Source: an uncultured Clostridia bacterium
Lineage (GTDB): Bacteria > Bacillota > Clostridia > Christensenellales > Aristaeellaceae
Reading direction: 5' to 3'
Length of the DNA: 64,000 bases
NCBI GenBank assembly: GCA_946408995.1
Contig: CAMJUL010000007.1
Span: forward strand, 17 to 64,016
The notes under the pieces were generated by a model. It was given only the letters and a program-made list of their open reading frames with translations. It searched no databases and had not been told where the DNA came from. A program made the translations under genes and the position numbers. Below, piece after piece: positions 1,446 through 23,392 of this stretch; within the stretch, counting starts at the first letter, position 1; each line of letters begins with the position of its first letter.

Positions 1446-1559
1446 TTGCGCAAAAAAACTGTCAGTAAATAAACAGATATGTTATGGGAATAAGGCGAAA
1501 GGAAAAGTCTCCTTCGTCCAAATTCCCGGAGACCAGGAATGAAACAGGGAGAAAAAAGG

Positions 1560-2213: not shown

Positions 2214-2215
2214 GC

Positions 2216-2500: not shown

Positions 2501-2770
2501 AACATGTTCCGCTCATTCGAAAAGGAAGCCACAGACGTGCAAGGGAGCGTTTCCACAAAAAACTGCACAGAGGAGGGCTTCCCGTAAACAGCATTATCCA
2601 GGCAAATGGGAAAAAACCAAGGGAGAAAGAGGAGAATCCGTCAGATAACGGGAGAAGAAATGCTGAATAAGACTGCTGGACGCAGAAGCGGACGGGATCA
2701 CGCTGGCTGGGAAACAGGACAGAAGATGTGAAGAAAACCGTACATAATGGAATCCTTAACAAGAATGAAG

Positions 2771-2800
2771 CGCCGGTTCATGAGAGCCGGCGGCTTTTCT
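2771..2800 (+). terminator. Possible rho-independent terminator for the + strand cat cluster, overlapping the stop of the convergent gene
   Basis: Stem CGCCGG / CCGGCG with a 10-nt loop, followed by GCTTTTCT. Confidence 0.35.
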
Positions 2801-4748: not shown

Positions 4749-4844
4749 AAATCATTCCTCCATCAATCATCGGATAAAACAGTATATCACAGGGGTTCTT
4801 CGTCACAGCCCTTTGTTTTCTTCCCGTTTGTCTCCTGAACCCCA

Positions 4845-5753: not shown

Positions 5754-5763
5754 GCAGATCACC

Positions 5764-6708
5764 TCACCATAAGCTTTCATCCAGCGCGCGGCGGCACACG
5801 GTGTTGGCGGTCACGATCAGGATCAGATTGACCACGGAGTTCATCAGTCCTACCGCTGTGGCATAGCTGTAATCGCCCTTCTGAATGCCGTTTTTGTACA
5901 CCAGCGTGGATATGATTTCGCTGGCGCCGATGTTCAGATCGTTTTGCATCAGCAGGGCTTTTTCAAAACCGATGGTCATCAATTGGCCGATGCGCAGGAT
6001 AAACAGCGTAACGATGGTAGGCAGGATGCAGGGCAGGGATACGTGGATGATTTTCTGCCATCGGGAGGCGCCATCCACCGTGGCGGCTTCGTACAGGGCC
6101 GTGTCTACCCCCGCCAGGGCGGCAATATAAATGATGGCGTTCCAGCCCATGTTTTGCCATACGTTGCTGATCACGTACAAGGGCCGGAAATAGTTTTCAG
6201 ATTCCATCAGCGGGATCGGCTTCATGCCCAAAGCCTGAATGAACAGATTGATCACGCCATAGCGCTGATCGGTAAACAGCTTCAGCATGCTTACCACCAC
6301 CACGATGGAAAGAAAATATGGGATATAGGTGATGTTCTGCAGGATTTTGCGAAACCGGAGGCTGTTGATTTCATTCAGCATCAGCGCCAGAATAATAGGA
6401 GCGGGAAAACCAATCGCCAAACACCCCAGATTGATGGCCAGGGTATTCCAAATGGTGCTCCAGGCGTAATAAGAGGTAAAATACCGGGTAAAATGGCGCA
6501 GCAAAGGGGAGGCCCAGGGACTTTCCAGGATTCCCAGCCGCACCTTGTAATTCTTAAATGCCAGCTGCACCCCGAACATGGGTACATAGCAGAAAATGAT
6601 ATACCACGCCACCGGAATCACCAGCAGCGCCAGCAATTGCCAATGGGCCAACACCCGTTTTTTGAACCAGTGCGCCGCCCTGGGCTTGGCTATAGGATGC
6701 GCGGACAT
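5764..6708 (-). CDS. Carbohydrate ABC transporter permease (CUT1, LplB-like)
   Basis: Multi-pass membrane protein with the EAA loop YEAATVDGASRWQKIIHVSLP. Confidence 0.85.
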   Translation of the reverse strand: MSAHPIAKPRAAHWFKKRVLAHWQLLALLVIPVAWYIIFCYVPMFGVQLAFKNYKVRLGILESPWASPLLRHFTRYFTSYYAWSTIWNTLAINLGCLAIGFPAPIILALMLNEINSLRFRKILQNITYIPYFLSIVVVVSMLKLFTDQRYGVINLFIQALGMKPIPLMESENYFRPLYVISNVWQNMGWNAIIYIAALAGVDTALYEAATVDGASRWQKIIHVSLPCILPTIVTLFILRIGQLMTIGFEKALLMQNDLNIGASEIISTLVYKNGIQKGDYSYATAVGLMNSVVNLILIVTANTVCRRALDESLW

Positions 6709-6726
6709 ATTTTCCTTCCTTCCTTG

Positions 6727-6762
6727 GAAAAAACAAGAGGGAGAGGGTGCGTCCTCTCCCTC
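6727..6762 (-). terminator. Intra-operon hairpin/terminator between the binding-protein gene and the permease genes
   Basis: On the minus strand, a 10-bp stem GAGGGAGAGG / CCTCTCCCTC with a 6-nt loop, followed by TTGTTTTTT. Confidence 0.6.
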
Positions 6763-6786
6763 AGGGGTTCAGATTGGTTCTGCGGC

Positions 6787-8322
6787 TTATTGATAGGTGT
6801 CCAGCCGCTCCTGATAGATGCCCACCCATTCCTGCAGACCCATGTTTTCCAGGGTGCTGCAATAGGTGTCCCATTCATCGAAGCTCATTTCGCCCCGGAT
6901 AAACTTGGCGGCACAGGACTTCATGTAGGTGGAGATATCGGTGTCCAGGATCTGCAGCCGCTCGTTCACTTCCGCGTCAAACAGAGGCTCGGCATAGAGT
7001 ATATAGTCCATATAGGGGTCCAGGGCGGCCTGGGCGGCCTGGGTGGTGGGGGAGCAGACGGCGATGCAGTTGCGGTCGTTCAGGTACTGGGGAGAACCGC
7101 CGCCGGGCCAGATGCAGAACTGGGCGATGGTGGGGCCGGAGCCGTTGGGATTGTTCAGAATGCCGTCCACATAGACGGGATAGCCGTTTTCATCCCGGGT
7201 CCAGGTCTTGCCCTCGATGCCGTAGCGCATCAGGTAGCTGCCCTCTTCGCTGAACAGGTAATCGATCCAGCGCATGGCGGCTTCGGGATAATCGCAGTCA
7301 CAGGTGATGGCAAAGGTACCCAAATCGCGGGCAACGGGGCCGCTTTGCACGTACAGGTTATCGCTCATGCCAGCCATGGGGGCGATGCCGATATAGTTGG
7401 TGGAATCAAAGGCGTCGTCGGCCTGATTGAAGAAAATACCCATCATCTGGCCGCTCATCTTGGCGTTGAACTTGGAATACTCCTGGGTGAAGATGTCGGG
7501 ATCCATCAATCCCTCTTCGTACATCCTGTTGCTCCACTGCAGCAGGGCCTTGAACTGGTCGCTGGTCAGCCAGGAGGTCAGGGTCTTGCCGTCTTCGCTC
7601 AGATTCATTTCCTGACCGAACTGGTACTGCAGGCCGAACATACCCGCCATGGTGTCGAACCAGAAGTTCAGGTCTGCCGCGCCAATGGGAATTTCGTCCG
7701 CTTCGCCATTGCCGTTGGCATCGTATGCCTTGAAGGCCCGAAGCACGGCTTCCAATTCTTCAAAGGTGGTGGGAACGTTCAGGCCCACGGCGTCCAGCCA
7801 GGCTGTATTGCACCAGATTTTTTCCGTGCGTGCGGCGTTTACGGCGATGATGGCGGCCAGCGCGTAAATGTGGCCGTCAGGCGCGGTGATGCGGCCTTCC
7901 ACGTCCGGATATTGATCCATCAGGGCGGTGTAATTGGGGGCGTACTCCTTGAGCAGATCCTCAAGGGGCAGCAGAACGCCTTCGTCGCCGTACTTGATGA
8001 TCTCGGTACCGCTCAGGCCCGGGGCAACCAGCATATCGTCGTAAGTGTCGTTGGTCCACATCAGGGCCTTGGCTTCATCATAGCCCTGAGAAGGGGCCTG
8101 GTTGAATTCAAGCGTGATGCCGGTCATCTCCTGATATTTCTGGAAAAAGTCCATGGTGGCCCAATCCGCGTGAATAGCGCCCTGCTTGCCAAAGATAGAC
8201 AGGGTGATAGGCTCGGTGACAATGGGCAGCTCGCTTTCGGTATTCAACACGTCCTTGGTGTCTGCCAAGGCGAAAAGCGGCGTCATGCACAGCACGAGCA
8301 CAAGACATAACCATTTTTTCAT
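6787..8322 (-). CDS. Extracellular solute-binding protein of a sugar ABC transporter (large LplA-like type)
   Basis: Start set at ATG 8322 (AAGGAG upstream), giving the signal peptide MKKWLCLVLVLCMTPLFALA. About 510 aa, typical of oligosaccharide-binding family 1 proteins. Confidence 0.85.
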   Translation of the reverse strand: MKKWLCLVLVLCMTPLFALADTKDVLNTESELPIVTEPITLSIFGKQGAIHADWATMDFFQKYQEMTGITLEFNQAPSQGYDEAKALMWTNDTYDDMLVAPGLSGTEIIKYGDEGVLLPLEDLLKEYAPNYTALMDQYPDVEGRITAPDGHIYALAAIIAVNAARTEKIWCNTAWLDAVGLNVPTTFEELEAVLRAFKAYDANGNGEADEIPIGAADLNFWFDTMAGMFGLQYQFGQEMNLSEDGKTLTSWLTSDQFKALLQWSNRMYEEGLMDPDIFTQEYSKFNAKMSGQMMGIFFNQADDAFDSTNYIGIAPMAGMSDNLYVQSGPVARDLGTFAITCDCDYPEAAMRWIDYLFSEEGSYLMRYGIEGKTWTRDENGYPVYVDGILNNPNGSGPTIAQFCIWPGGGSPQYLNDRNCIAVCSPTTQAAQAALDPYMDYILYAEPLFDAEVNERLQILDTDISTYMKSCAAKFIRGEMSFDEWDTYCSTLENMGLQEWVGIYQERLDTYQ

Positions 8323-8382
8323 TCCGGGTTCAGCTCCTTTTCTTTTGGTTTGGAGGATAAAGCGATCCTCGTTGGTGAATCG

Positions 8383-8411
8383 ATTGTAACATGTACACAC
8401 GTGTTTGTCAA
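8383..8411 (-). promoter_or_regulatory. Near-consensus sigma-70-type promoter of the ABC/glutaminase-like operon, with the operator motif filling the spacer
   Basis: The minus strand reads TTGACA-AACACGTGTGTACATGT-TACAAT (17-nt spacer), about 60 nt upstream of ATG 8322. Confidence 0.6.
8392..8406. promoter_or_regulatory. Candidate operator, site 1 (TGTACACACGTGTTT)
   Basis: This 15-mer is identical to 16382-16396 and contains the palindrome ACACGTGT. It lies between the -35 and -10 hexamers of the promoter above. Confidence 0.55.
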
Positions 8412-8524
8412 TAGACCATTTGAAATATATTCTATTTTTCTTTGTTTTTACAACAAATATACACACTATGCTAATGAGTGTATATTCCTTGTGCCTGATG
8501 ATTTTCCGGCAAGCACGGCGGGCT

Positions 8525-9310
8525 TCACGCCAGCAACCGAACAGCATTGTACACGCAGAGGGCGAAAATGACGATCAGCAGGCTGATAAACAGCCGATCC
8601 GTAAGATGGACGGAAAGCTTTTTGTGCAGATGGGCGGAAAGCAGGCCGCCTGCCGCTCCGGCGAGCACCATGGCCGCCAAAATGCTCCAGGAAAAAGCGG
8701 GAACGGCTCCGGTGAGCAGGCTGAAAAGCAGGCTGGCTAATTGACTGAGCAAGATGATCAGGATAGAATTGACCGCCGCCTTTTTTGTATCCATGGAGAA
8801 AAAGAAATACAGCACCGCCAGATTCATGGGGCCGCCGCCGATGCCCAGGAAGGAGGAGCAAACGCCGAGCGCCAGTCCAATGAGCCCCGGCGCAGTGATT
8901 CCTTTTACATTTTTTGTGGGGATCCGGGTTTTGTTCAGCACATACAGCAGCGTTCCCAGGATAAGCAGCCCCAGCACCAGGGCCTGCACCGCGCCGACCG
9001 GCCGGTCAGCATTCAGGGTGGATTTCAGACTGGAAAAAATCTGCTTTCCAACAATGCCGCCTATCGCCGCGCCGATGCCCAGGGGAACGCTCCGGGCAGC
9101 ATCCATTTCGCCCCCTTTGCGGTTTTTCAGCACATTCAGGCAGGCCATGGCCAGCACCGTGAGACCGGATAAAAATGAAACCGTGGATACGGGCATGATG
9201 TCGATAGAATCCAGCAAGGGCTTGATGACCACGCCGCCGCCGATGCCGCAGATACCGCCGATGGAGCTTGCCGCAAAGCAAATCACAAATACGAGAGCAG
9301 TCTTCATCAT
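8525..9310 (-). CDS. TauE/SafE (DUF81) family anion exporter/permease
   Basis: Start set at ATG 9310. About 260 aa and very hydrophobic, with duplicated Gly-rich motifs GICGIGGGVVIKPLL and FLGIGGGPMNLAVL. It starts 15 nt after the LarA-like stop. Confidence 0.7.
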   Translation of the reverse strand: MMKTALVFVICFAASSIGGICGIGGGVVIKPLLDSIDIMPVSTVSFLSGLTVLAMACLNVLKNRKGGEMDAARSVPLGIGAAIGGIVGKQIFSSLKSTLNADRPVGAVQALVLGLLILGTLLYVLNKTRIPTKNVKGITAPGLIGLALGVCSSFLGIGGGPMNLAVLYFFFSMDTKKAAVNSILIILLSQLASLLFSLLTGAVPAFSWSILAAMVLAGAAGGLLSAHLHKKLSVHLTDRLFISLLIVIFALCVYNAVRLLA

Positions 9311-9324
9311 GGGCGGTTGTCCTT

Positions 9325-10821
9325 TCAGCCTCCGCAGGGATGGGCCGGCGCGTTGTCCCGGTAATGGCTGTTTTCCTCGGGATTCTTCATGCACAGGTGT
9401 ATGGCGGCGGTCGTGAAGGTTTTGGGCAGGGCCAGGATATTGGGGTTTTCGCCCACAAATTTCCGCTTGGCGTCCTCGATGGCTTCCTCAATGGTGGCCC
9501 GGGTTTTCAGCCCCATCCCCCTTGCGATGCCGGGCTCCCGGGCCCCGATGATATAGATGGCGCTGGTGTGCATTTCCGCAAGGTGGCCGCAGCTCATCAT
9601 GCTGAACCCATGGAAGGGATGGAAAGCATTGGCGTAGCGGTATTTGCGAATGTATTCCTCGTTGGTGGCGAAGTATTCGCCGTAACGGTTCATATCCGGC
9701 AGGGTCTGCATGGAATCATGCTGGAACATTTCGTAGAGTTCCTTTATATAGGGCCAGCGCTCGTCATGGAACCACCCATCGCAGATCGAGGGCACGATGA
9801 ACACGCAGTGATCGGAAAGCACCCGCTTGTGCCGGATCACCTGGGCGGACAGGGCCTGCATCATCTGGATGGGGTTGGTGCCCATGCCGTCGCCGTAGTG
9901 AAAACGGGTAGGCATCCCAAACACCACGATGTCGTATTTCTTATCCGCCCAGTGCACATAGGTGCGCTTATCCGCCATTTTCCATGACACGGGCTGCATT
10001 TCCTTGGCCCAGCCGGAATTGATTTCGATTTGCCGGGATTTCGTGTCCAGCACGGCGTCACAGCAGAAGAATTTTTTGCCCATTTTTTCTTCCATGTGCA
10101 TGCCCTGCTGATCGAATTTATCCCGCATGAGGCTGCCGGTGGAAACGGGTACAAAGTCCGGCCGGTGCATTACCTGGGGCACGTGATGGGCGGCGATGGA
10201 GCGCCAATGGCTGATACCGGTGGCACAGTGCTTATAGCCGCCGGAATAGCCGCCATAGGGGTTGCCCTGGGTGTGGCCGATGAGGATGGCCACATCGGCG
10301 TCGTACACATACCTGTTCATGATCACGTGGTCTCCCTGAGCGGTAAAGCCCAGGTCCACCAGGTGATCCCAATCCTCGCTGTCGTGGCTGGTGATTTGGG
10401 AGGAATACCAGAAATCGTTGAACAGTTCATCGCCCAAAATCTGCCGGGCTTCGTTCATAGGCGTGCGGGGGTGCAGGCCGTTGGAAAACAGCAGCAGGAT
10501 ATTTTCTTTTTGGATGCCCGCGCTGTACAGCTCATCCAGGCAGGCCTGGATGGCCACCTTTCGGTGACTGGTGGGCTGGCAGCCACCCTTGACGATATCC
10601 GGGATTACGAACACCACGGTCTTTTTGCCCTTGGCTATCTCTCGCAAGGGCTCCATGCCGATGGGATGGCGGAGGGAGTGCATGGTCGCCTGGTACAGGC
10701 TGTCCCAGTCCTGGGGGAGACAGGCAGGATCGGGCACCGTTTCGCCGGGGATGAACACGTCGGTGGTATCGGGCAGATTGGCGGTCATGAAGCCGTTGCC
10801 GTATTCAAATTGAAGCTGCAT
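9325..10821 (-). CDS. LarA-family (DUF2088) putative nickel-pincer-dependent racemase/epimerase
   Basis: 498 aa. VVFVIPDIVKGG, LIGHTQGNPYGGYSGGYKHCATG (candidate cofactor-tethering Lys) and several conserved-looking His residues. The resemblance to lactate racemase LarA is from memory. Confidence 0.65.
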   Translation of the reverse strand: MQLQFEYGNGFMTANLPDTTDVFIPGETVPDPACLPQDWDSLYQATMHSLRHPIGMEPLREIAKGKKTVVFVIPDIVKGGCQPTSHRKVAIQACLDELYSAGIQKENILLLFSNGLHPRTPMNEARQILGDELFNDFWYSSQITSHDSEDWDHLVDLGFTAQGDHVIMNRYVYDADVAILIGHTQGNPYGGYSGGYKHCATGISHWRSIAAHHVPQVMHRPDFVPVSTGSLMRDKFDQQGMHMEEKMGKKFFCCDAVLDTKSRQIEINSGWAKEMQPVSWKMADKRTYVHWADKKYDIVVFGMPTRFHYGDGMGTNPIQMMQALSAQVIRHKRVLSDHCVFIVPSICDGWFHDERWPYIKELYEMFQHDSMQTLPDMNRYGEYFATNEEYIRKYRYANAFHPFHGFSMMSCGHLAEMHTSAIYIIGAREPGIARGMGLKTRATIEEAIEDAKRKFVGENPNILALPKTFTTAAIHLCMKNPEENSHYRDNAPAHPCGG

Positions 10822-10833
10822 GGCTGATCCTCC

Positions 10834-11682
10834 TTACTGTACGCAGTTACGCATGTATATACGGATAATGTCCAGGTATTCCCCGGGATAGAAGCCGATT
10901 TCCCCCTGAAAGCGGGTCAGGGCGATGAGCCCCCCGTCGATTTCTGGAATGGAGGCCAGCATGGCTGCGTTTTCCTGCTTGAGCCCGCCGCCGTATACCA
11001 CATCCATGCCCTCGGTGGACGCCTTTACGAACCGGGCGATCTTTTCAATATACGGTTTGTCCGCCGGCGCTTTGCCGGGCCCGATGGACCAGATCGGCTC
11101 ATAGCCGATGACGATTTTGTTTTTGTCCGCCCCCAACAATCCCAGCTCCAGCTGCGTACCCAGTACGGCTTCCCATTGGGATTGTTCCTCGCTTTTTTCG
11201 CCGATGCAGTATAAAACGCTCAGGCCTGCTTTCTGGGCGCACAGGACTTCCCGGTTCAGGATGCGGTTCACCGCTTCGGCGGCTTTTTCCCCGGTGACTC
11301 CGGCTTCCGCCAGAACCCCCATTTTATCGTTTCTTTCTTCGCAATGGCCGATAAGCACGCTTTGGCAGCCTGCCTCCTTCATGGCGTTGGCCGTGCGATT
11401 GGCGGTAAACGCGCCGAAATTGCCGCCCACGGCGGTATCGGAACGGAACACCCCCTGACAGCCCACTTGCAGGGGGCTGTCCTCCGTCCTTGCGGCTGCG
11501 GCGGAAAGGATATGAGCCTCCGGGAAATACATTACGAATTCTGCGTCCGGGTAAGCTTTCAGCGCGTCCTGGGTGCTTTCCACGATGGTTTTTCCCCATG
11601 CCGCCATGGGGGCCAGGCGGTTCACACCGCCCTTTGCCGGGGAAATATCGAAGCGTTTTAAATTCAAATAAATGTGTTTCAT
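10834..11682 (-). CDS. Triose-phosphate-isomerase family protein (divergent paralogue)
   Basis: Start at ATG 11682. TIM catalytic motifs are retained: LNLKRF (Lys), IGHCEER (His), IGYEPIWSIGPG (Glu), VYGGGL (phosphate loop). Confidence 0.8.
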   Translation of the reverse strand: MKHIYLNLKRFDISPAKGGVNRLAPMAAWGKTIVESTQDALKAYPDAEFVMYFPEAHILSAAAARTEDSPLQVGCQGVFRSDTAVGGNFGAFTANRTANAMKEAGCQSVLIGHCEERNDKMGVLAEAGVTGEKAAEAVNRILNREVLCAQKAGLSVLYCIGEKSEEQSQWEAVLGTQLELGLLGADKNKIVIGYEPIWSIGPGKAPADKPYIEKIARFVKASTEGMDVVYGGGLKQENAAMLASIPEIDGGLIALTRFQGEIGFYPGEYLDIIRIYMRNCVQ

Positions 11683-11693
11683 GGTTTCTCCCT

Positions 11694-12842
11694 TCACACC
11701 CAATGGGGGATGGTCGGAAGCTGATCGCCGATCAGGGGACGGCACCAGCGCAGGAAGGCATCCGTCACGTTATAGGGAGCCAGGTATTCCGGAGGGAGCG
11801 GCCGCTCATGCAGGGCCAGTCCCTCCAACGGAACCAGGATTTTTTCGCAGTGATACGGTTCATCCGATACCCGGCGAAGCCCCGCCATCATGCCGCCGGT
11901 TCCGGCCAGCATCGTGCGGGTGGCCAGGGCGCCTAAGCTTTCTGCCTCTGTCCGGTCCACCGGGGATGCCATTTCCCCGCAGCACCGGCCCAGGATGCCC
12001 GGCGTTTCACACCTGGCCTTGATCCCCAGCTTTTCGATCACCAAGCGGCACAAGTATTGGGAAACCGCCCCGAAATATACCGCCCGGCCTGAGGCAAACA
12101 GGGGCGGGGCCACAGGCGTCCCGTCGGCATAGCGGATGCCTTCGCTGACGGCCACCACCACTCCGCGGCCCTGTTTCCATATCCGGGCCGCTTCATTGAG
12201 AAAATCCGCTTCGTTAAAAGGTACTTCGGGCAAAAGGAGCATATGGGGTGCGTCCCCGGCCTTTTCCCGTGCCAAGGCGGACGCTGCCGTGATCCACCCC
12301 GCGTTGCGGCCCATATATTCCACGATGCACACATGGATGGGCAGGGCGGCTACGTCCGCGGCGATTTCCCGCATGGACACCGCCGCGAACCGGGCGGCGC
12401 TGCCAAAACCCGGGGCGTGATCCGTCAGATCCAGATCATTATCGATGGTTTTGGGAATGCCGCCCACCAAAATGCCGTTTTTCCGGCACGCTTTCCACAG
12501 CTTGGCGCAGGTATCCATGGTGCCGTTTCCGCCTGTCAAAAGCACATAGCCGATTCCGTGCTTCTTAAGCACGCGGACCATATCGGCGTAATCCTTTTCT
12601 TCCAGAGGCGTGCGGGAGGTGCCAATGGCGGAGGCGGGTGACGCAGCCAGCGCCTGCAGCGCGGTTTCGTCCAGCCCGGTCAAATTGATAAAGCTTTCCT
12701 TTAAAATCCCTCTGGTGCCGTGGGACGCGCCCCAAATTCCATCCACCTTACCTGAATGCTGCGCCTCCCTGATCGCCCCGGCCAGGGAAGCGTTGATTAC
12801 CGCGGTGGGCGCCCCGCCGTGGGCAATGAGCAATTGAGCCAT
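11694..12842 (-). CDS. PfkA-family phosphofructokinase-like sugar-phosphate kinase
   Basis: HGGAPTAVINASL, LLTGGNGTMDT, GIPKTIDNDL and MGRNAGW motifs of the 6-phosphofructokinase family. Confidence 0.8.
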   Translation of the reverse strand: MAQLLIAHGGAPTAVINASLAGAIREAQHSGKVDGIWGASHGTRGILKESFINLTGLDETALQALAASPASAIGTSRTPLEEKDYADMVRVLKKHGIGYVLLTGGNGTMDTCAKLWKACRKNGILVGGIPKTIDNDLDLTDHAPGFGSAARFAAVSMREIAADVAALPIHVCIVEYMGRNAGWITAASALAREKAGDAPHMLLLPEVPFNEADFLNEAARIWKQGRGVVVAVSEGIRYADGTPVAPPLFASGRAVYFGAVSQYLCRLVIEKLGIKARCETPGILGRCCGEMASPVDRTEAESLGALATRTMLAGTGGMMAGLRRVSDEPYHCEKILVPLEGLALHERPLPPEYLAPYNVTDAFLRWCRPLIGDQLPTIPHWV

Positions 12843-12891
12843 ACAATGCTCCTTATAGAAAGAAGATATGGTTTTGCAGTATCGACACTCA

Positions 12892-14247
12892 TCAAAGCTC
12901 GATCACTGGAATATCCATCAGCGCGGCGGTTTGCTTGAGGGCGTCGTAAATATCGTCCCATACCAATACATAGTGGTGAGGGATCTGCTCCTGGATCAGA
13001 CGTTCCGCGGTCTCCCGCACTGGCGCTGCCATTTTCACCTGGATCATGCTGCCACGGGTCACCCGGTCCCGGTCCAGCGCTTCCCCCCGCGTGAGCACCA
13101 GCTTATACTTGCCATGGAAATTGTGCAGGCGGGCGATGGTCACTTGGCCTGGTTTGAGTGCCGTCCAGAAGGCAGAGCCCTGGCCCACCAGGGGATGGTT
13201 GCGAAGCTCCGGTTTGTATTTTTCATTGTGCAGGGAGGGGGCGGCATTGCCGCAATGCCAGAAATACAGGGTGTTTTCCTCTTCGTTCAGGTCGATCATG
13301 TCCGTGATGAAGGGCGCTTTTCCGGGAGAGAGAAGCATTTCCATCATCTGAGTGATGCCCGCGTCCACGTCCCCTTCGCAGCCGATGGATATCCCGTCAT
13401 CCAGCAGTCTGCCCAGCACCGCGCAGGGCTGGGTGTGGGCTGCGCCCATTTCCGGCCAGCATTTGATGATTCCGAAATCATACCCATCCAGTTTCATCCG
13501 CTTTTTCAGAGCCAGATACAGCCTGCAATGGTTCTCCAAATGCCCCTCAGGCAATAGAGAGGGATTCCACCTGGCGGAAACGGCAGCCATGTCCGCCTTT
13601 ACTTCCTCCTCCGGCAGGGCAGCCATATCGTCAAACACGGTTTTCAGCTCGGTGGCGTTCATGGCAAGCCCGAAGGTACGCCGGATGACGGCCTCGTCAA
13701 AGGTGCTGACATAATAGTTGGTGGGGCGGTAGCCGAACAGACCCAGCGTCATCTGGGACAGTGCCTTTTTCACTGCATAGCTCCGCAGCAGGTTTTTCAC
13801 CTTTTTCGCGGCCCGTTCATCCTCTTTGCCCCCGTACACCGTATGGCAGGGATAGCCCAGCCTGCCCAGGGCGGCGGCGTTCATGGTCATGGCGCACAGG
13901 GCGTTGGCCCACAGCCTTTCTTCCCGCACGTAAGGCGGCTCGTAGGGGGCCCACAGGATCAGCGGCACGCTCATCTTCTGCACGATGGCCGCGGCGATAT
14001 CGTCCCCCGTAAACGCGCCGTACACCATCACAACCGCGTCTACCTGGCTTTGCCGCATCATGGATATGGCGTCGTTCACTTCCTCCGGGGTGGTCAGCAC
14101 GTGGTCCGGCATTACCAGGTTCATATCCGTTAATTGCTCCCGGGCCCAGGCAGTGTATTCCCTGTGGCGCTCGATGGGGAGTTCCCTGGGCCAGCGACCG
14201 GACAGGGTCACGATCAAGCCTACGTTCAATGGATTTTTCATTTTCAT
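12892..14247 (-). CDS. L-fucose/L-arabinose isomerase family sugar isomerase
   Basis: 451 aa. Its organisation and motifs (GCEGDV, FWHCGNAAPS, C-terminal beta domain) resemble the FucI/AraA-like isomerase family. Assignment is by eye. Confidence 0.65.
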   Translation of the reverse strand: MKMKNPLNVGLIVTLSGRWPRELPIERHREYTAWAREQLTDMNLVMPDHVLTTPEEVNDAISMMRQSQVDAVVMVYGAFTGDDIAAAIVQKMSVPLILWAPYEPPYVREERLWANALCAMTMNAAALGRLGYPCHTVYGGKEDERAAKKVKNLLRSYAVKKALSQMTLGLFGYRPTNYYVSTFDEAVIRRTFGLAMNATELKTVFDDMAALPEEEVKADMAAVSARWNPSLLPEGHLENHCRLYLALKKRMKLDGYDFGIIKCWPEMGAAHTQPCAVLGRLLDDGISIGCEGDVDAGITQMMEMLLSPGKAPFITDMIDLNEEENTLYFWHCGNAAPSLHNEKYKPELRNHPLVGQGSAFWTALKPGQVTIARLHNFHGKYKLVLTRGEALDRDRVTRGSMIQVKMAAPVRETAERLIQEQIPHHYVLVWDDIYDALKQTAALMDIPVIEL

Positions 14248-14260
14248 TTAATCCTCCCTG

Positions 14261-15115
14261 TTACGCTTTTCCTTCGGAGCCGGAAAGGCAGATGATGCGC
14301 TTTACGTCTTCCTTCAGGGCGTTGCAGGCGTATTGGCTCACTTTCCAGCTGTGGCCCTGATGATCCATTTTGAGCCCTTCCTCCAGGTGCTCGATATATT
14401 TCCAGCGGATTTCCGTGCCGAAATTGATCTTGGCAATGCCAAGTTCTTTCACGGCCTTGCGGATGATGCTTTCATCCATCCCGGTGCAGCCGTGCAGCAC
14501 CAACGGGAGATCGCAGAAGGAGCGCACCTGCTCCAGGATTTCCAGATGAATATCTGGCTTTCCCTTGTAAAAGCCGTGGGCGTTACCAATGCCGATGGCC
14601 AAAGTATCCGGATGGCACAGGGTGAGGAACTCCTTCACCTGCAGAGGATCGGCCAGGTTTTTGTTTTCCAATACAGCGCCCGTGCTGTCCAGCCGTTGCA
14701 ATTCGCCGATCTCAGCCTCCACCGGCGCATGGAAGTATTTCGCCACCTGGACCACGCTTTCCGTCAGCGCTGCGTTTTCCCTGACGGGCAAGGTGGAGCC
14801 GTCGATCATCAGCGAAGTAAAGCCCAGCCGCAGCGCCTCCATACAGATGGCAAAATCCGCCCCGTGATCCAAATGGATGGATACCGGGACGGAAACCTTT
14901 TCGGCGCACCACTTGGCCACCTGATAAAACCAACCATGGCCGCTATACGCCCCGGTGCTCGCGTAATGGGCCAGGATCACGGGGGATTGAAGCTCCTCCG
15001 CTGCTTTGCACGCAGCCATGATGATGTCGTAGTTACCGCCCTGGGTATTGATGGCTGGAATAGCATAGCCCTCCCGCCTGGCACGCTGCATTTGCTCCAG
15101 GTTGTTACACAGCAC
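14261..15115 (-). CDS. Class II ketose-bisphosphate aldolase (FbaA/GatY/KbaY family)
   Basis: 284 aa. YAIPAINTQ, SIHLDHGADF (zinc ligands) and LVLHGCTG motifs. GTG start at 15115. Confidence 0.85.
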   Translation of the reverse strand: MLCNNLEQMQRARREGYAIPAINTQGGNYDIIMAACKAAEELQSPVILAHYASTGAYSGHGWFYQVAKWCAEKVSVPVSIHLDHGADFAICMEALRLGFTSLMIDGSTLPVRENAALTESVVQVAKYFHAPVEAEIGELQRLDSTGAVLENKNLADPLQVKEFLTLCHPDTLAIGIGNAHGFYKGKPDIHLEILEQVRSFCDLPLVLHGCTGMDESIIRKAVKELGIAKINFGTEIRWKYIEHLEEGLKMDHQGHSWKVSQYACNALKEDVKRIICLSGSEGKA

Positions 15116-15155
15116 AGCAGATCACCCTTCCTCCAATATATCGAACCGAATAATT

Positions 15156-15168
15156 ACACGTATGTACA
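15156..15168. promoter_or_regulatory. Candidate operator, site 2 (reverse complement TGTACATACGTGT)
   Basis: Matches 12 of 13 positions of the core of sites 1 and 3. It lies 41-53 nt upstream of the aldolase start, in the divergent LacI/aldolase intergenic region. Confidence 0.45.
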
Positions 15169-15321
15169 CTGAAAGTATAGCACAGACTTCGCTTTGGTGT
15201 CAATAATAACATCCGGTTTTTTTAAAGCTTTTTGCGGAACACAGGAGAAATCGCCGGATTGACTTCATATTTCCTTTGTGATACAATATACACATATCCA
15301 CAAATGAGAGGGGGCGGCCAA

Positions 15322-16335
15322 ATGCCGCGTAAGGGAAACACGCCCACGCGAAAGGATGTGGCGGATCTGGCCGGAGTATCGGAAACCATCGTGTCCTATG
15401 TGCTCAACGCCAACCGTTATGTATCGGCGGACAAGAAAAAACGGGTACTGGCTGCAGTGGAAAAGCTGCATTACCGGCCAAACTCCATTGCCCGGGCCTT
15501 GAAGGGCAAGGGCAACAGCCACATTTTGTTTATCGCCGATAACGTTGCCAACAATTATTTCGGTAGGCTTCTGCAGGAGTTGGACGACGTAGCCTACGAT
15601 AAAGGGTATCTGGTGTCTCTGATGAGCGCCAAGAATGACCGGGATTTTATCAACCGCATCCTGTCCCGTCAGGTGGACGCGGTGATTATTTCCTCCACCA
15701 GCCTGGCGGAAAGCTATGTACAGGAATTGGTGGATAACGGCTTGCCCGTGGTGCTGCTCATGACCCGGGACTATGCCACTGTTCACGGCCGGGTGGCCCG
15801 CATCTATACGGGCATCGAATCCGGCATCATGGCGGCGGTGCGCCTGCTGCATGAAAGCGGCTGCCGGAACTTGGTGCATGTGGACCGGGTGAGCCGCCAG
15901 GAGCATTTTTCCAACCGTCAGGATCTGCGTTTCCGGGGCTTTTGCAACCAAATGGAAACGTTGGGCCATCAATTGTCGGCGGATTCCTTTATTACCGGCT
16001 GCCACGATTACGACGAATTGTTTGAAGCTGTGTGCTGCCGAATCAAAAGCGGCGTGCCTGTGGACGGCTTTGTCTGCCGCAATGACGGCCTGGCCTGCAT
16101 GGTGCTGAACGCCGTGCTGGCCTGCGGAAAAAAGGTGCCGGAGGATATTTCCGTCATCGGCTTTGATAATTCCGACACCAGTCGCATCGTCCGTCCCGCT
16201 CTTTCCACCATCGCCACGGACCAGAAGGCCATTGCTGAAGCAGCCCTGGAATTGATCGAAGCCTTGATCAATGGGCAGACTCCCGGTGAAAAGCATTTGG
16301 TAACCCGCATGGTGATTCGGGACACTACCAAATAA
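15322..16335 (+). CDS. LacI family transcriptional regulator
   Basis: Start at ATG 15322 (GAGAGGGGG upstream). N-terminal HTH TRKDVADLAGVSETIVSYVLN, followed by a periplasmic-binding-protein-like sugar-binding fold. Confidence 0.85.
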   Translation: MPRKGNTPTRKDVADLAGVSETIVSYVLNANRYVSADKKKRVLAAVEKLHYRPNSIARALKGKGNSHILFIADNVANNYFGRLLQELDDVAYDKGYLVSLMSAKNDRDFINRILSRQVDAVIISSTSLAESYVQELVDNGLPVVLLMTRDYATVHGRVARIYTGIESGIMAAVRLLHESGCRNLVHVDRVSRQEHFSNRQDLRFRGFCNQMETLGHQLSADSFITGCHDYDELFEAVCCRIKSGVPVDGFVCRNDGLACMVLNAVLACGKKVPEDISVIGFDNSDTSRIVRPALSTIATDQKAIAEAALELIEALINGQTPGEKHLVTRMVIRDTTK

Positions 16336-16343
16336 GCGATCTT

Positions 16344-16367
16344 CCCCGTACCGAACGAGGTACGGGG
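16344..16367 (+). terminator. Hairpin after the LacI gene
   Basis: 9-bp stem CCCCGTACC / GGTACGGGG with a 6-nt loop. The T-tract is weak (ATTGTT). Confidence 0.45.
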
Positions 16368-16381
16368 ATTGTTCGACACCT

Positions 16382-16396
16382 TGTACACACGTGTTT
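16382..16396. promoter_or_regulatory. Candidate operator, site 3 (TGTACACACGTGTTT)
   Basis: Identical 15-mer to site 1. It sits between a -35-like TCGACA (16373-16378) and a weak -10-like TTGATT (16396-16401), 30 nt upstream of ATG 16426. Confidence 0.5.
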
Positions 16397-16425
16397 TGAT
16401 TCTGTAAAAGAAAGGAAGGCCGTCT

Positions 16426-17451
16426 ATGCTGGATGCAACGTACTTTGAGGGAATCCGCGGCGCGGTTTATTTCCCCTCCCGCGCTTACAACGCCTGGCAG
16501 ACCTGGAATGAGCTGAATCCGGAGGAGATCGACCGGGACTTTGGATATGCCCAGGACGCGGGCATAAACGCCCTGCGCATGTTCGTGAGCTTTGAATACT
16601 GGCAGGAGGAACCGGAGAAGTTTTTTGAACGCTTTGAGCAGGTGATCGCGCTGTCACAAAGGCACTGCATCCGAGTGATGCCCGTGCTGTTTGAAGACTG
16701 TGGGACGGATAACACGGAGGAAGCACGGAAAAACAAAAACCCCCATACCGCCATTTGCGTGTGCTCCCCCTGCCGGGCCATTCAGTCAGCCCCCGCCCGC
16801 TGGGTGGAGGTGCACGGGTTTGTGGATGCCTTCATGCGCCGCTATGGCAGTGATGAAAGACTGCTGGCCATCGAATGTATGAATGAGCCTCATTGGGAAT
16901 CGGGCAATGTTCCCTTTGCCCAGCATATTGTGGCGCTGTCGAAAGGCTATCGGGGCAGCGTTCCTCTGACCATCGGCTGCATCACGCTTTGGCACAACCT
17001 GTATTTCGGCGATGATCTGGATATTTACCAGTATCACGACAATTTCCCCCAGAGCGCGGAAAAACTTGGACGGGTGATCCGGGATGCGAAAACGGTGCAG
17101 CAATTGATACGCAAGCCCTGCTGGCTCACGGAATGGCAGCGGGTAAGGGAGGCCGGCCCTGGTTGGGATACCTCCGTGATCCCGCAGGAATACACCGTGC
17201 CCGCCCTGGCCTCGCTGGCCCCCACGATTTACGCGGAAGGGGTTGGCAGTTTCTTCTGGTCCCTGATGGTCAAGCCCGCGTATCTGATGGCACAGCGGCC
17301 CAACGGCACCTATAACGGCCTGTTCCATGAGGACGGCAGCGTGTACAGCCTGAAGGATTATCAGGCCATCGCCGGAAAAAATAAAATCCGCCCCGAAAAG
17401 GCGGATCTGCCGGCTTGGTACAAGGAAAGTCTGAAAAAATACGACCATTGA
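16426..17451 (+). CDS. Clan GH-A (TIM-barrel) glycoside hydrolase, GH5-like, no signal peptide
   Basis: 341 aa. Candidate acid/base in ECMNEPHW and nucleophile in CWLTEWQ, spaced as in GH5/cellulase-type enzymes. Confidence 0.55.
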   Translation: MLDATYFEGIRGAVYFPSRAYNAWQTWNELNPEEIDRDFGYAQDAGINALRMFVSFEYWQEEPEKFFERFEQVIALSQRHCIRVMPVLFEDCGTDNTEEARKNKNPHTAICVCSPCRAIQSAPARWVEVHGFVDAFMRRYGSDERLLAIECMNEPHWESGNVPFAQHIVALSKGYRGSVPLTIGCITLWHNLYFGDDLDIYQYHDNFPQSAEKLGRVIRDAKTVQQLIRKPCWLTEWQRVREAGPGWDTSVIPQEYTVPALASLAPTIYAEGVGSFFWSLMVKPAYLMAQRPNGTYNGLFHEDGSVYSLKDYQAIAGKNKIRPEKADLPAWYKESLKKYDH

Positions 17452-17460
17452 TCGATCAAA

Positions 17461-17507
17461 AACAGCCGTTCCGCTTTACATCAAGCACTGCAGAACGGCT
17501 GTTTTTT
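17461..17507. terminator. Bidirectional rho-independent terminator between convergent genes
   Basis: 11-bp stem AACAGCCGTTC / GAACGGCTGTT, followed by TTTTATGTTTTT on the + strand and TTT on the minus strand. Confidence 0.6.
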
Positions 17508-17563
17508 ATGTTTTTCCGGCACTGGCATAGCCGCCGGACGGCGGCCAATTGATGTGCCGGGTA

Positions 17564-19594
17564 TTACAGCACAACGATCTTTTCTCCAAGCGTTTCGCAA
17601 TCCAGGAGCTCCTTCGTCTTTTTGATCATGGTTTCTGCGTCGATCAGCGTATCTCCTGCCCACCAATAACGCCATTTTTTCGATAATCCTTTTTCCCGCT
17701 CATCCAAAATGCTTTGCAGTGCCATAGCGCCCTGCTGAACGGACAGGCGGAACAGGGCCGAATCCGCATCCGTCCGTCTGTATTGAGCGGCCTTGCACAG
17801 CGCGTTGACCCATTGATACAGGCCCAGGATCGTCTGAAGCTGCACAATCAGGTTGTTTTGAAAAAAGGCCCGGCGTTCCTTGGGAATCTGAGGAAGATAT
17901 GCCCGCGCCCGGGCGGATACTGCTTCAAAGTGCTCGATTCCTTTCGCTGTGACCTCCATATAGAAGGCTATAAAAGCCTCCGTTGTGGCAAAATCAAACA
18001 GCCGCTTGTTCTGGATATCGATTTTTATCAATTCTTCCCCCTGAATGATTTTCATCAGCATCAAAGCCACCCGCTTGCACATGCCGTCCATCAGCAGCAT
18101 TCGTCCCGATAGGCCGGTATCGTCCAGATGGGAATAAGCATCGAAATACGCCGTATACAATTCCGCCGCATCCTTACCGTCCGGCAGGTCCAGCACCTCC
18201 TGGCACCAGCTCTTTTCCGCTTCCTGAGGGGTCAGCCCCTGAAAAAGCCAGGTGCACTCCGCCACGGTGGAAATGCCCAGCACGTGCTCCCGAATGTTGG
18301 ACACGTTGAGAACGGAATAGGTTGTGTCGCCCAGGCGGAATGCGCGGTTGTAATTATACAGGATTTTTTCCGGCCGGTTCCCCTGCACCAGATGGGGGCC
18401 GCACCCCCAGAAGCACACGTGGTAATAAACGCCGTAGCTTACGTCCGCCCGGCGCGGCGTTTCAGCGTATTCGCTGCCCCACATCTGATCGGGGCCAAAA
18501 TCGGAAAGGACGATGATGGCGTTCTTTGGAAATTGCAGCGTGCCCGCCCGATACAGGGGCATTCCCTCCATCCACAGGGTCGAGGAGCAGAAGAAATCTT
18601 CCTGGCCCGTTTCCTCCGCAATGATGTGCCACTGATCCCGGATGGCTGCGGAAATCAATGCGCCGCGAGCCTCCGGCGTATCCGGGATCCGGTCGTTTTG
18701 ATACCAAACAGGCCGATCGCCCCGGCCCCGCAGGCCCAATTGCCAGATCACATTGGGGTACTTGGCCCATTTGCGAATAAAGTGCCGCCAAATCTGCCGG
18801 TATTTTTCAGGATGATCCATGTAATTCAGGTTTTCCGTATTGTCCCCCCTGCTTTTGAACCAACGGTCCAGCCGCTGCTGATTCACGCCAACAGGCTCCT
18901 GATGGTGCATGGAAATGAACAGGCCCCGGTCAGTCACAAGCTTTACCAGGGCTTCCTGGGCGGGATCGTCCATATCGATATGGGACGCGGGAATGAGCAG
19001 ATTCTGCTTCATCCGCAGGGCCGTTTCTACGATCATAGACAGCATGGGTGCGTAATCCTGATGAAAATCATATTCTTTTTCGGGCCGTCCCTGACGGCAA
19101 TACCCCATGATCAAATCTTCATCGTTGATGAACCAGCCCCGGAAACGATAGCTTTCCGGGCCGTCCACGACCTTTAGATCCTGGATCTCAATCGTTTCTT
19201 TGCGAATGGGAGCATGATCCGTAAAATGGTACATGGGATCAATCCCCAGAATCCGTCTGCTGCATTCGTAGAGAGCCCACATGGTGCCCCGTTCGTCGCT
19301 GCCGATCAGGTACAGGGTATTTTCGTTGCTTTCCAGCAAAAAATACTCCCATTTTCCTTCGATGCCGGAAGCATCCACCCCGTCCTGCTTCAGTTTTTTC
19401 CGCAGAAGAGGATTCGTCACCGTGCCGATAACCACCTGATCATCCGTTTTTTCCCCATTACGGATGATCTGCCCCGGCCGACCGCATACGGCCAACACAT
19501 CGTTTAAAAAATCCTGCGCCGCAAGGCCCACGCATTTCTTCTCGTGGGGGGCGATCCAAACCTTCACCGGATGAGTCCGATCAAACAGCATCAT
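17564..19594 (-). CDS. GH115-like glycoside hydrolase (alpha-glucuronidase-type family), intracellular
   Basis: 676 aa. LIGSDERGTMWALYECSRRILGIDPMYHFTD and YRFRGWFINDEDL resemble conserved N-terminal/catalytic-domain blocks of GH115 as I remember them. Confidence 0.5.
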   Translation of the reverse strand: MMLFDRTHPVKVWIAPHEKKCVGLAAQDFLNDVLAVCGRPGQIIRNGEKTDDQVVIGTVTNPLLRKKLKQDGVDASGIEGKWEYFLLESNENTLYLIGSDERGTMWALYECSRRILGIDPMYHFTDHAPIRKETIEIQDLKVVDGPESYRFRGWFINDEDLIMGYCRQGRPEKEYDFHQDYAPMLSMIVETALRMKQNLLIPASHIDMDDPAQEALVKLVTDRGLFISMHHQEPVGVNQQRLDRWFKSRGDNTENLNYMDHPEKYRQIWRHFIRKWAKYPNVIWQLGLRGRGDRPVWYQNDRIPDTPEARGALISAAIRDQWHIIAEETGQEDFFCSSTLWMEGMPLYRAGTLQFPKNAIIVLSDFGPDQMWGSEYAETPRRADVSYGVYYHVCFWGCGPHLVQGNRPEKILYNYNRAFRLGDTTYSVLNVSNIREHVLGISTVAECTWLFQGLTPQEAEKSWCQEVLDLPDGKDAAELYTAYFDAYSHLDDTGLSGRMLLMDGMCKRVALMLMKIIQGEELIKIDIQNKRLFDFATTEAFIAFYMEVTAKGIEHFEAVSARARAYLPQIPKERRAFFQNNLIVQLQTILGLYQWVNALCKAAQYRRTDADSALFRLSVQQGAMALQSILDEREKGLSKKWRYWWAGDTLIDAETMIKKTKELLDCETLGEKIVVL

Positions 19595-19615
19595 GGTTTT
19601 GCCCCTTTCTTATTG

Positions 19616-19646
19616 AAAGGCGGACAAGGGCTGTCCCTTGTCCGCC
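19616..19646 (-). terminator. Hairpin between the binding-protein gene and the GH115-like gene
   Basis: On the minus strand, a 12-bp stem GGCGGACAAGGG / CCCTTGTCCGCC with a 4-nt loop, followed by a short TTT. Confidence 0.5.
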
Positions 19647-19664
19647 TGTATATCGCTGAAAAGC

Positions 19665-21344: not shown

Positions 21345-21395
21345 GGGATATACCTCCTTTATATTTCATATGCGATTCCGCATATTGAATCAGGT

Positions 21396-22322: not shown

Positions 22323-22339
22323 GTCCTTTTCCTCCTTTC

Positions 22340-23296: not shown

Positions 23297-23392
23297 GCCG
23301 GAACACCCCTTTCATGTTTGAGACGGGATCAGGGAGGAATTCTTCGCGCACAATGTAACATTCGGGAAAGAAAACGCTCAAGTCCCAAAACC

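Follow-up and report, generated by a model that had tools for sequence, protein, structure and literature searches.

The locus described here raises the question of which sugar, and which chemistry, could bring enzymes of glycolytic families together in one operon with a nickel-pincer-nucleotide protein of the LarA family and a TauE-family anion permease. It is a six-gene operon at positions 8525–15115 of a 64,000-nucleotide stretch of contig CAMJUL010000007.1 (assembly GCA_946408995.1) from an uncultured Clostridia bacterium of the Aristaeellaceae, the whole of this stretch being called the window below. An earlier note on the sequence had taken the operon for a dedicated parallel pathway in which an imported sugar is cleaved and an acidic fragment is then racemised or epimerised and exported, with a sulfo-Embden–Meyerhof–Parnas (sulfo-EMP) route as one speculative fit. 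That interpretation holds in part: the parallel pathway and the sulfo-EMP direction stand, whereas the racemase or epimerase step, and the treatment of the triose-phosphate isomerase (TIM) homologue as a spare copy, do not. The reading favoured here, to which we give roughly even chances, is that of a LacI-controlled operon for an imported sugar carrying a sulfur oxyanion at C6 in place of phosphate, in other words an EMP-type pathway for a sulfo-sugar. So read, the front half of the operon is a new variant of EMP-type sulfoglycolysis, and the back half, a TIM paralogue with a nickel-pincer enzyme, is without a characterised counterpart.

All six of the packed, same-strand genes that had been described are present. 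They are read from 15115 to 8525, on the minus strand, as checked by open reading frames (ORFs) and by Pfam and NCBIfam profiles, with gaps of 13, 49, 11, 12 and 14 nt in the order from the first gene to the last, and a Shine-Dalgarno-like motif ahead of each. The first encodes a class II metal-dependent ketose-bisphosphate-type aldolase of 284 aa (14261–15115; PF01116, 246 bits), of the short type shared by fructose-bisphosphate aldolase (FBA), GatY and AgaY, and is followed by an aldose-ketose isomerase of the FucI/AraA superfamily (12892–14247; Fucose_iso_C), whose nearest characterised family is SftI/SqvD, and by a PfkA-family 1-phosphotransferase for which a SqiK-like role is predicted (11694–12842; PF00365, 174 bits). 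The second half comprises the TIM paralogue of 282 aa (10834–11682; PF00121, 116 bits), the LarA-like nickel-pincer-nucleotide protein, which belongs to a single-histidine (Asn187) subfamily (9325–10821; Lar_N, 119 bits), and, as the last gene, an anion permease of the TauE/SafE (TSUP) family of 261 aa (8525–9310; PF01925, 110 bits). The motifs singled out earlier (IHLDHG, TGGNGT, IPKTIDNDL, LNLKRF, IGHCEER, YEPIWSIGPGK and GGYSGGYKH) were all found in their respective proteins, and the flanking genes that had been named, a divergent LacI gene, a sugar importer of the ATP-binding cassette (ABC) type and glycosidase-like genes, were likewise recovered by Pfam scan.

The operon appears to be under its own control. 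A promoter-like site on the minus strand (15174–15203), a consensus match only, has TTGACA, an 18-nt spacer, TATACT and an upstream TG, and it is the top sigma-70-like match in 2500–17600 (11/12), its distance to the aldolase gene being 59 nt. An equally good site lies ahead of the gene for the importer's solute-binding protein (SBP), and within these 15 kb no promoter-like site scores better than these two. The divergent regulator gene (15232–16335, plus strand; LacI helix-turn-helix and Peripla_BP_3) probably has its true start at 15304 or 15322, with a promoter-like site at 15259–15287, and it is kept beside the cassette in three related loci (L060, L091 and L092). No inverted repeat that could serve as a LacI operator was detected in 15100–15330, and no Rfam element within the window.

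The evidence that carries the interpretation of the back half comes from the neighbourhoods of related genes. Relatives of this LarA clade, sought in genomes with an alignment of it, turned up in at least 564 species-level genomes. Cultured carriers include Blautia wexlerae, Bengtsoniella intestinalis, Intestinimonas massiliensis, Owariibacterium komagatae, Acutalibacter intestini, Yanshouia hominis, Muriventricola aceti and Caproiciproducens sp. R1. The 80 best loci and 8 others were analysed with a codon-usage gene caller, clustering and a tblastn census, and 84 non-redundant loci were counted. The TIM paralogue is present in 67 of these 84, nearly always immediately upstream of LarA. In the reciprocal census, in which the TIM paralogue served as the seed in metagenomes, LarA was co-located in all 64 loci that had enough downstream sequence, in 57 of them directly downstream and in the same orientation. 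Because every TIM-seeded locus holds LarA, mostly as the next gene, the TIM paralogue and LarA form a near-obligate module, and the genes that feed it are interchangeable, being NagA/NagB, a phosphoglucose isomerase (PGI), an SftI-like isomerase, a transaldolase, a transketolase or dehydrogenases in different loci. The view of the TIM paralogue as a spare TIM gives way to this, as what the census shows instead is an obligate partner of LarA. The same six-gene arrangement, with a homologue of the window isomerase, recurs in L009 (89% nucleotide identity over 10.7 kb), L060, L091 and L092.

The same census, which had been suggested as a check on how far the LarA neighbourhood is conserved, shows a strong enrichment of genes linked to sulfur in the neighbourhood of LarA orthologues. 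A class II aldolase is found in 45/84 loci and a phosphofructokinase (PFK) homologue in 37/84, and beside these stand SsuABC-type importers (31/84), TauE (29/84), an anaerobic sulfatase maturase (4/84), a sulfatase (3/84) and a YihU-like gene (2/84) whose best NCBIfam match is sulfolactaldehyde 3-reductase. Other recurrent neighbours are NagB-like (31/84), NagA (29/84), PGI-like (17/84) and DUF4838 proteins (12/84), an FSA/TalC-like transaldolase (7/84) and a split transketolase (5/84). Sulfatase/SGSH_C, present in five distinct clusters, was the commonest Pfam family among 90 rare operon members. When only large loci are considered (≥15 kb, n = 48), the TIM paralogue is present in 40 and at least one sulfur-linked marker in 35. 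None of the eight large loci that lack the TIM paralogue has an FBA-type aldolase or a transaldolase; seven of them carry an SsuABC-type importer with a GlpA-like or YihU-like dehydrogenase or a transketolase, and the eighth (L069) has no scored neighbour. Where a ketone would be formed directly, by a GlpA-like dehydrogenase, there is no TIM paralogue, and this suggests that the input of LarA is the ketone or enediol form, or a product of elimination from it.

Two variant layouts were also observed. In L003–L005 a compact operon (approximately 900–13200), beside an integrase, holds LacI, an SsuA-type ABC importer, a GlpA-like FAD dehydrogenase, Pyr_redox, DUF1667, LarA, two TauE genes and a LarC gene (Ni_insertion) that adjoins LarA, and it has no sugar enzymes. 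By its gene content this may be a mobile module for a C3-sulfonate or C3-sulfate of the 2,3-dihydroxypropane-1-sulfonate (DHPS) kind, and it may be the simplest system in which to seek the LarA substrate. In many related loci, L019, L027, L028, L038 and L067 among them, the order is an SsuABC-type importer, a two-component system, in some a PGI, then a NagB-like protein, NagA, a long class II aldolase of approximately 386 aa, TIM, LarA and TauE; no PFK is in view, so that the kinase is encoded elsewhere or the aldolase cleaves a ketose without a C1 phosphate.

The window proteins were scored against Pfam and NCBIfam profiles, with the NCBIfam equivalog cut-offs as the test of housekeeping identity, and the EMP-like proteins fell far below these cut-offs, so that by profile score the operon is not housekeeping glycolysis and the earlier proposal of a dedicated, regulated parallel pathway is upheld. 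The isomerase aligns over its full length with the SftI equivalog model NF048012 at 223.5 bits against a cut-off of 700, and is thus a distant paralogue; SftI is nevertheless its sole strong match, the second-ranked family, L-arabinose isomerase, reaching only 37 bits. Its homologues, at 57–70% identity, sit in loci with LarA/TIM and/or a sulfatase, one of them in the sulfatase locus L089, whose aldolase is 71% identical to that of the window. The aldolase, which contains IHLDHG, scores nearly equally on the FBA (223 bits, cut-off 343) and GatY (217 bits) models, all below cut-off, and against the Protein Data Bank (PDB) its scores are 143 bits for FBA, 140 for AgaY and 132 for SqiA (the proteobacterial 8Q57/8Q58), SqiA thus being no better than generic FBA. 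The published SqiA signature of the 6-anion pocket is the replacement of Arg280 by Ala.

The kinase, with its TGGNGT and IPKTIDNDL motifs, passes the only EMP-like model to be passed by any of these proteins, NF010675 of the PRK14072 subfamily (378 bits, cut-off 273), and is far from the ATP-dependent PFK model TIGR02482 (70 bits, cut-off 371), with GGNGT in place of GGDGS and Lys at position 124. In E. coli PfkA numbering, which is approximate here, Asp103 is Asn in all orthologues, Gly124 is Lys, position 104 is Gly in the window and Asp in 13/35 orthologues, and Arg171, Glu222, Arg243 and Arg252 are retained. The earlier remarks on a Gly at the Asp site of pyrophosphate (PPi)-type enzymes and a Lys at an E. 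coli Gly site agree with this, and the PPi-type assignment is mixed: the NF010675 cut-off is exceeded and Lys124 is present, but position 104 is Gly and position 103 Asn. In 35/37 orthologues Arg162, a ligand of the 6-phosphate in E. coli PfkA, is replaced by His (numbering again approximate).

Among characterised pathways the front half most resembles sulfo-EMP2 of Bacillus urumqiensis and Megamonas rupellensis, which consists of a FucI-like isomerase (SqvD/SftI), a PF00365 kinase (SqiK) and a PF01116 aldolase (SqiA). The window has the identical three families in the same logical order, and both systems are found in Firmicutes, have an anion exporter and need no C6 phosphorylation; unlike in sulfo-EMP2, however, the window isomerase is a distant paralogue, the glycosidases are of beta type, and a TIM paralogue and a LarA homologue stand in the later positions. 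A second likeness is to the Aga/tagatose-6-phosphate pathway (AgaA, AgaS, a PfkA-type kinase and AgaY/KbaY/GatY), which the near-equal aldolase scores on GatY/AgaY and FBA models recall, as does L173, where NagA-like, SIS (AgaS-like) and EIID-AGA genes occur; it differs in that a C6 sulfate is proposed for the phosphate, an aldose isomerase replaces the deacetylase/deaminase in the window, and TIM, LarA and TauE are added. The Lachnospiraceae locus covered by L173/L174 combines PFK, TIM, LarA, NagA-like, EIID-AGA, isomerase, LacI, sulfatase, ABC importer, a 284-aa aldolase and an AgaS-like SIS protein, in gene content an Aga/tagatose-type set with sulfur genes. In related LarA loci kinase and aldolase also give way to an FSA/TalC-like transaldolase or to a split transketolase, as in the sulfo-transaldolase (sulfo-TAL) and sulfo-transketolase (sulfo-TK) pathways, and other loci combine an SsuA-type importer, a dehydrogenase and TauE in the manner of C3-sulfonate use. 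Unlike in the sulfo-TAL route, the sulfo-TK route and HpsG-type DHPS desulfonation, the proteins of the LarA loci are below equivalog cut-offs and no glycyl-radical enzyme is found. To our knowledge no sulfoglycolysis or DHPS desulfonation pathway includes TIM-like or LarA-like enzymes, no LarA/TIM sulfo-sugar pathway was found described in the literature searched, and no characterised locus for sulfoquinovose, tagatose or galactitol proved orthologous as a whole cluster, the similarity being at the level of families.

The TIM paralogue keeps the catalytic apparatus of housekeeping TIM and differs from it at the anion. Its motifs LNLKRF (Asn/Lys), IGHCEER (His/Glu) and YEPxWSIGPGK (Glu and loop 6) are invariant across the family, which also has YGGGLK, so that the Asn/Lys/His/Glu set and the loop-6 lid of TpiA are intact. 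It is, however, approximately 30 residues longer, is never seen without LarA, and in loop 8 has ALTR in place of the phosphate-binding GGAS (60/66 members); its scores on the NCBIfam TIM equivalogs are 80.5 bits against 255 and 64.4 against 130.6, below housekeeping level. Canonical TIM binds a phosphate dianion and should not process a monoanionic sulfate or sulfonate analogue.

The LarA-like protein is, judged by its sequence, an orthologue of LarA_Bw (Blautia wexlerae) and LarA_Sp (Streptococcus plurextorum), with 821 bits to PDB entry 9Q3J and 796 bits to 9Q2U/9Q3K; its exact sequence is not on record, and no difference in the protein itself was noted. This subfamily has one catalytic histidine, the second being an invariant Asn, and forms octamers; LarA_Sp holds the nickel-pincer nucleotide through a Lys thioamide and does not racemise lactate, and the carboxylate-binding Arg of lactate racemase is swapped for a Lys that mainly serves the cofactor, in a different substrate pocket (Gatreddi et al., Protein Sci, November 2025; PMC12611868). 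The authors describe its function as uncharacterised, note glycolysis-like neighbours and speculate on a role in carbohydrate metabolism, and sulfur is not mentioned (Gatreddi et al., 2025; PMC12611868). In agreement with their numbering, the window protein has Asp75, Lys78, His117, Asn187, Lys197, His213, His308, Tyr309, His401, His404 and Arg434: His174 (L. plantarum numbering) has become Asn, and the base His117, the anchor Lys197, Asp75, Lys78 and the nickel-binding His are kept. Canonical lactate racemase is a poor description of it, as the second His is Asn187, the Arg is Lys78 and the score on NF033504 is 108 bits against a cut-off of 460. Since the subfamily is without one of the two catalytic histidines and LarA_Sp is inactive on lactate, the plain 2-hydroxyacid racemase or epimerase step proposed earlier is unlikely. 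No cofactor biosynthesis gene of the larB, larC or larE type was found within the 64-kb window, and no substrate for the single-histidine subfamily was found assigned in the literature searched. What is new relative to the literature is the obligate pairing with TIM and the sulfur-linked context, the LarA subfamily and its glycolysis-like neighbours having been published already.

The genes that could supply and clear such a pathway lie on either side of it. The sugar ABC importer of CUT1 type (4845–8322, minus strand) comprises the SBP (6787–8322; SBP_bac_1) and two permeases (5764–6708 and 4845–5780; BPD_transp_1), with its own promoter-like site at 8411–8383 and a strong terminator-like hairpin (6762–6737) after the SBP gene. 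The importer region is syntenic, as far as 4846, with that of L009 (89% nucleotide identity), and in L006 and L060 homologues of the SBP and permeases occur together with LarA. Beyond the LacI gene, at 16426–17451 (plus strand), lies a candidate cytoplasmic clan GH-A (GH5-like) glycosidase of 341 aa with a weak Pfam Cellulase match; it has NEP and TEW motifs and no evident signal peptide, and looks like a cytoplasmic retaining glycosidase of that clan, with a counterpart of 343 aa beside LacI in L091 and L092. The TauE permease matches PF01925 with 109.5 bits over residues 8–249 of its 261, and in the 29 LarA loci that have a TauE gene it is usually directly downstream of LarA. In several related loci the DUF4838 neighbours, of approximately 620 aa and without an N-terminal signal peptide, sit beside NagB/NagA, TIM, PFK and LarA, and the cytoplasmic DUF4838 clade includes the GH185 6-sulfo-beta-GlcNAcase.

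The substrate is probably, to judge from these genes, a 6-O-sulfated, beta-linked hexose, for example galactose-6-sulfate from host or dietary glycans; galactose-6-sulfate is the best fit because the glycosidases are of beta type, the aldolase scores on GatY/AgaY and FBA are close, and there is no C6 kinase. By homology to sulfo-EMP2 and to the Aga/tagatose pathway, the ABC system would import the glycoside and the GH-A-type glycosidase would release a 6-sulfo-aldose in the cytoplasm, which the SftI-like isomerase would convert to the 6-sulfo-ketose. The PfkA-family kinase would then phosphorylate C1, a C6 kinase being unnecessary, and the class II aldolase would yield dihydroxyacetone phosphate (DHAP) and a 3-sulfo-triose aldehyde, either glyceraldehyde-3-sulfate or sulfolactaldehyde. 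For the remaining steps gene linkage and chemistry are the guide: the TIM paralogue, with its intact catalytic set and remodelled anion loop, could take the monoanionic sulfo-triose to an enediol or ketone, and the single-histidine LarA could complete a redox-neutral, NAD-independent conversion by shuttling hydride internally. TIM is known to catalyse, as a side reaction, beta-elimination of the anion from the enediolate, which is the reaction of methylglyoxal synthase, and the sequel that we favour would be a loss of sulfate or sulfite of this kind, after which a methylglyoxal-type species would become lactate. In sum, sulfo-triose and water would give lactate and sulfate or sulfite, redox-neutral, and TauE would export the sulfur anion or a sulfonated end product. 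The mechanistic argument suggests that a nickel-pincer enzyme with a single base is suited to removing a hydride and returning it elsewhere. As a specific proposal, that the TIM paralogue and LarA make up an NAD-independent desulfation or desulfonation module, turning the sulfo-triose into lactate or a related C3 compound and sulfate or sulfite for export by TauE, is tentative and on balance improbable. LarA may instead catalyse a hydride-shuttle isomerisation or a dismutation to exportable sulfonates, or be an epimerase at the hexose level. Of these, a sulfolactaldehyde dismutase, turning aldehyde and ketone into acid and alcohol, was ranked below elimination with internal redox, as it offers no benefit in loci that have an importer and a dehydrogenase.

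Several points weigh against the favoured reading. We know of no precedent among LarA enzymes for NAD-independent elimination followed by internal redox, the direction and substrate of TauE-family transport cannot be read from sequence, and the residue changes in the PFK and TIM homologues may be features of their clades that are unrelated to sulfate. Neither a GH31 sulfoquinovosidase nor a sulfatase lies in the window, nor does a sulfolactaldehyde reductase or dehydrogenase, and 13 of the 48 large LarA loci have no sulfur-linked marker at all. The DUF4838 neighbours are no more than candidate members of GH185, as the GH185 enzyme Sp_0475 is absent from their 120 closest homologues, a list filled by close relatives. 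Finally, elongated ligand density in LarA_Sp, for which a phosphorylated aldose was proposed, argues for a substrate larger than a triose (Gatreddi et al., 2025; PMC12611868). An adduct of 316.5 Da on purified LarA_Sp was left unidentified in the same study (PMC12611868). Its mass is close to that of nicotinamide mononucleotide minus water (334.2 − 18.0 = 316.2), so that it may be a pyridinium-nucleotide species and not the substrate; if so, the case for a large sugar-phosphate ligand is weakened.

The strongest of the other explanations is that the substrate is sulfoquinovose itself. The operon would then be a variant of sulfo-EMP2 in which the TIM paralogue and LarA, instead of an NAD(H) enzyme, treat sulfolactaldehyde by isomerisation to sulfoacetol, by desulfonation or by dismutation, and TauE exports sulfite or a C3 sulfonate. 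We regard this as unlikely, though it shares with the favoured reading the SftI-type nearest relative of the isomerase and the three enzyme families of sulfo-EMP2, and exporters of the TauE type and importers of the SsuA family are classic sulfonate genes; the LarA loci with YihU-like or GlpA-like dehydrogenases would also fit the use of DHPS. The isomerase, however, has 223 of the 700 bits required of an equivalog, the sulfatases and their maturase indicate sulfate esters, and the associated glycosidases are of beta type (GH-A, GH3 and DUF4838) where sulfoquinovose is alpha-linked. The earlier remark that neither a GH31 sulfoquinovosidase nor a sulfolactaldehyde reductase or dehydrogenase is visible was borne out: Pfam scans of the main genes of the window (the ABC permease ORFs at 21396–22322 and 22340–23296 excepted) found no GH31 (YihQ) and no DUF4867 (SqvB), no YihU reductase or SlaB dehydrogenase occurs in the operon or its flanks, and neither GH31 nor DUF4867 was found among the scanned neighbours of LarA orthologues, the large rare ones included in the case of GH31. 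The sulfo-EMP fit offered earlier is thus the best-supported direction, given the nearness of SftI, the three shared families and the sulfur-linked genes, with sulfoquinovose less likely as the substrate than a 6-O-sulfated, beta-linked hexose.

More doubtful is an ordinary phospho-sugar or amino-sugar, for which LarA would supply a private EMP branch as an epimerase or isomerase of sugar phosphates, the TauE and sulfur-type genes being incidental. The glycolysis-like neighbours and the elongated ligand modelled as a phosphorylated aldose in the structural study (PMC12611868) would both suit such a role, as would the NagA of related loci, which exceeds the cut-off for GlcNAc-6-phosphate deacetylase, and the large loci without a sulfur marker. 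Yet no C6 sugar kinase and no complete phosphotransferase system is found in the cassettes, some LarA operons have no sugar enzyme at all, only an SsuABC-type importer with or without a dehydrogenase and TauE, and chance adjacency falls far short of the enrichment seen for TauE, SsuABC-type importers, sulfatases and the maturase. The strict coupling to a triose-isomerase paralogue moreover indicates a C3 substrate. Very improbable is a uronate-type sugar with a carboxylate at C6, which would be cleaved to DHAP and tartronate semialdehyde, the TIM paralogue then giving hydroxypyruvate and LarA acting on a 2-hydroxy acid such as glycerate or tartronate. LarA enzymes do act on 2-hydroxy acids by precedent, and a GH115 alpha-glucuronidase gene lies 2.5 kb off; but that gene is part of a different cluster with the opposite organisation, genes for uronate use do not recur beside LarA in the 84 loci, and in this subfamily the carboxylate-binding Arg is replaced by the mainly cofactor-serving Lys in a different pocket. 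That this is the housekeeping glycolysis operon of the organism, as PFK, class II aldolase and TIM families side by side might suggest, is hardly credible and was rejected, as all three are far below equivalog cut-offs, the operon has LacI regulation and an importer of its own, the distribution is sporadic and modular with variable feeder genes, and species of Blautia and Streptococcus, which have canonical glycolysis genes, carry the module too.

On the far side of the importer lies a GtaA_6_Hairpin/DUF5127/DUF4964 protein (2778–4748, minus strand; Pfam match), a putative glycosidase that is peripheral and not conserved with the cassette; members of this GtaA-like family have been suggested to be glycosidases with weak beta-galactosidase activity. 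Neither this protein nor the GH5-like one has a relative in the PDB. Beyond it, at 459–2213 on the plus strand, are a gene for a protein with a GNAT acetyltransferase domain and one of the chloramphenicol acetyltransferase family (PF00302, 149 bits). On the other side, 16426–28861 and 31426–34524 hold further glycan-utilisation clusters, making the region a carbohydrate-foraging island: the GH115 alpha-glucuronidase-like gene (17564–19594) is followed by an SBP without a Pfam match (19665–21344) and permeases, an AraC/HTH_18 hybrid regulator (23484–25754), a second CUT1 importer (25589–28861) and a GH38 alpha-mannosidase (31426–34524).

Elsewhere in the window, an ORF at 44842–46713 (minus strand, 623 aa) joins MatE (efflux) repeats to a C-terminal HATPase_c_2 domain resembling an anti-sigma-factor kinase, and is either an unusual fusion or a pair of genes that ORF calling ran together. 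The segment 47748–64000 is an exopolysaccharide/capsule-type locus with Wzz/CbiA-like, LytR, Polysacc_synt_2, DegT aminotransferase, two ATP-grasp and family 2 glycosyltransferase (GT2) genes. Within it, at 49280–55192 on the plus strand, between Wzz/tyrosine-kinase-like and LytR_cpsA_psr genes, is an ORF of 1970 aa with a signal-peptide-like N-terminus and Tyr/Gly/Asp-rich repeats that by eye are YD/RHS-like; it has no Pfam match at E ≤ 1e-3, and its codon-usage score is strongly positive, the three long ORFs antisense to it being negative. Over the last 4 kb of the window the G+C content falls from approximately 0.55 to 0.39–0.45, a drop that suggests a variable segment or one gained by horizontal transfer. 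In this sequence of approximately 55% G+C, long ORFs of up to 788 aa that run antisense to real genes (e.g., 5944–8310, 12868–13557 and 9268–9987, plus strand) are common and are negative by codon usage; an antisense ORF of 626 aa lies over the LarA gene of related loci, and picking genes by length misled in approximately 35 loci.

Released 6-sulfo sugars such as GlcNAc-6-sulfate (GlcNAc-6S) are thought to require sulfatases before use. If the TIM paralogue and LarA do make up the desulfation or desulfonation module described above as improbable, gut Clostridia could ferment the galactose-, GlcNAc- and GalNAc-6-sulfates (Gal-6S, GlcNAc-6S and GalNAc-6S) of mucin and keratan without a prior sulfatase, the sulfate serving as a free stand-in for the C6 phosphate, and this LarA subfamily would gain its first physiological role and its first chemistry other than racemisation. 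The census narrows the search for the LarA substrate to sulfo-trioses, or close compounds, made beside a dedicated TIM paralogue, and a working expression system for the holo-enzyme, that of L. lactis with larBCDE, exists with which the subfamily can be tested. Should the sulfur reading prove wrong, the obligate pair of TIM-like and LarA-like proteins still flags an uncharacterised reaction in sugar catabolism. A sulfatase-independent, sulfoglycolysis-like route in abundant, butyrate-producing, mucin-associated Clostridia would alter models of sulfated-glycan foraging, and also those of sulfate and sulfite cross-feeding to sulfidogenic bacteria and hence of colonic H2S production.

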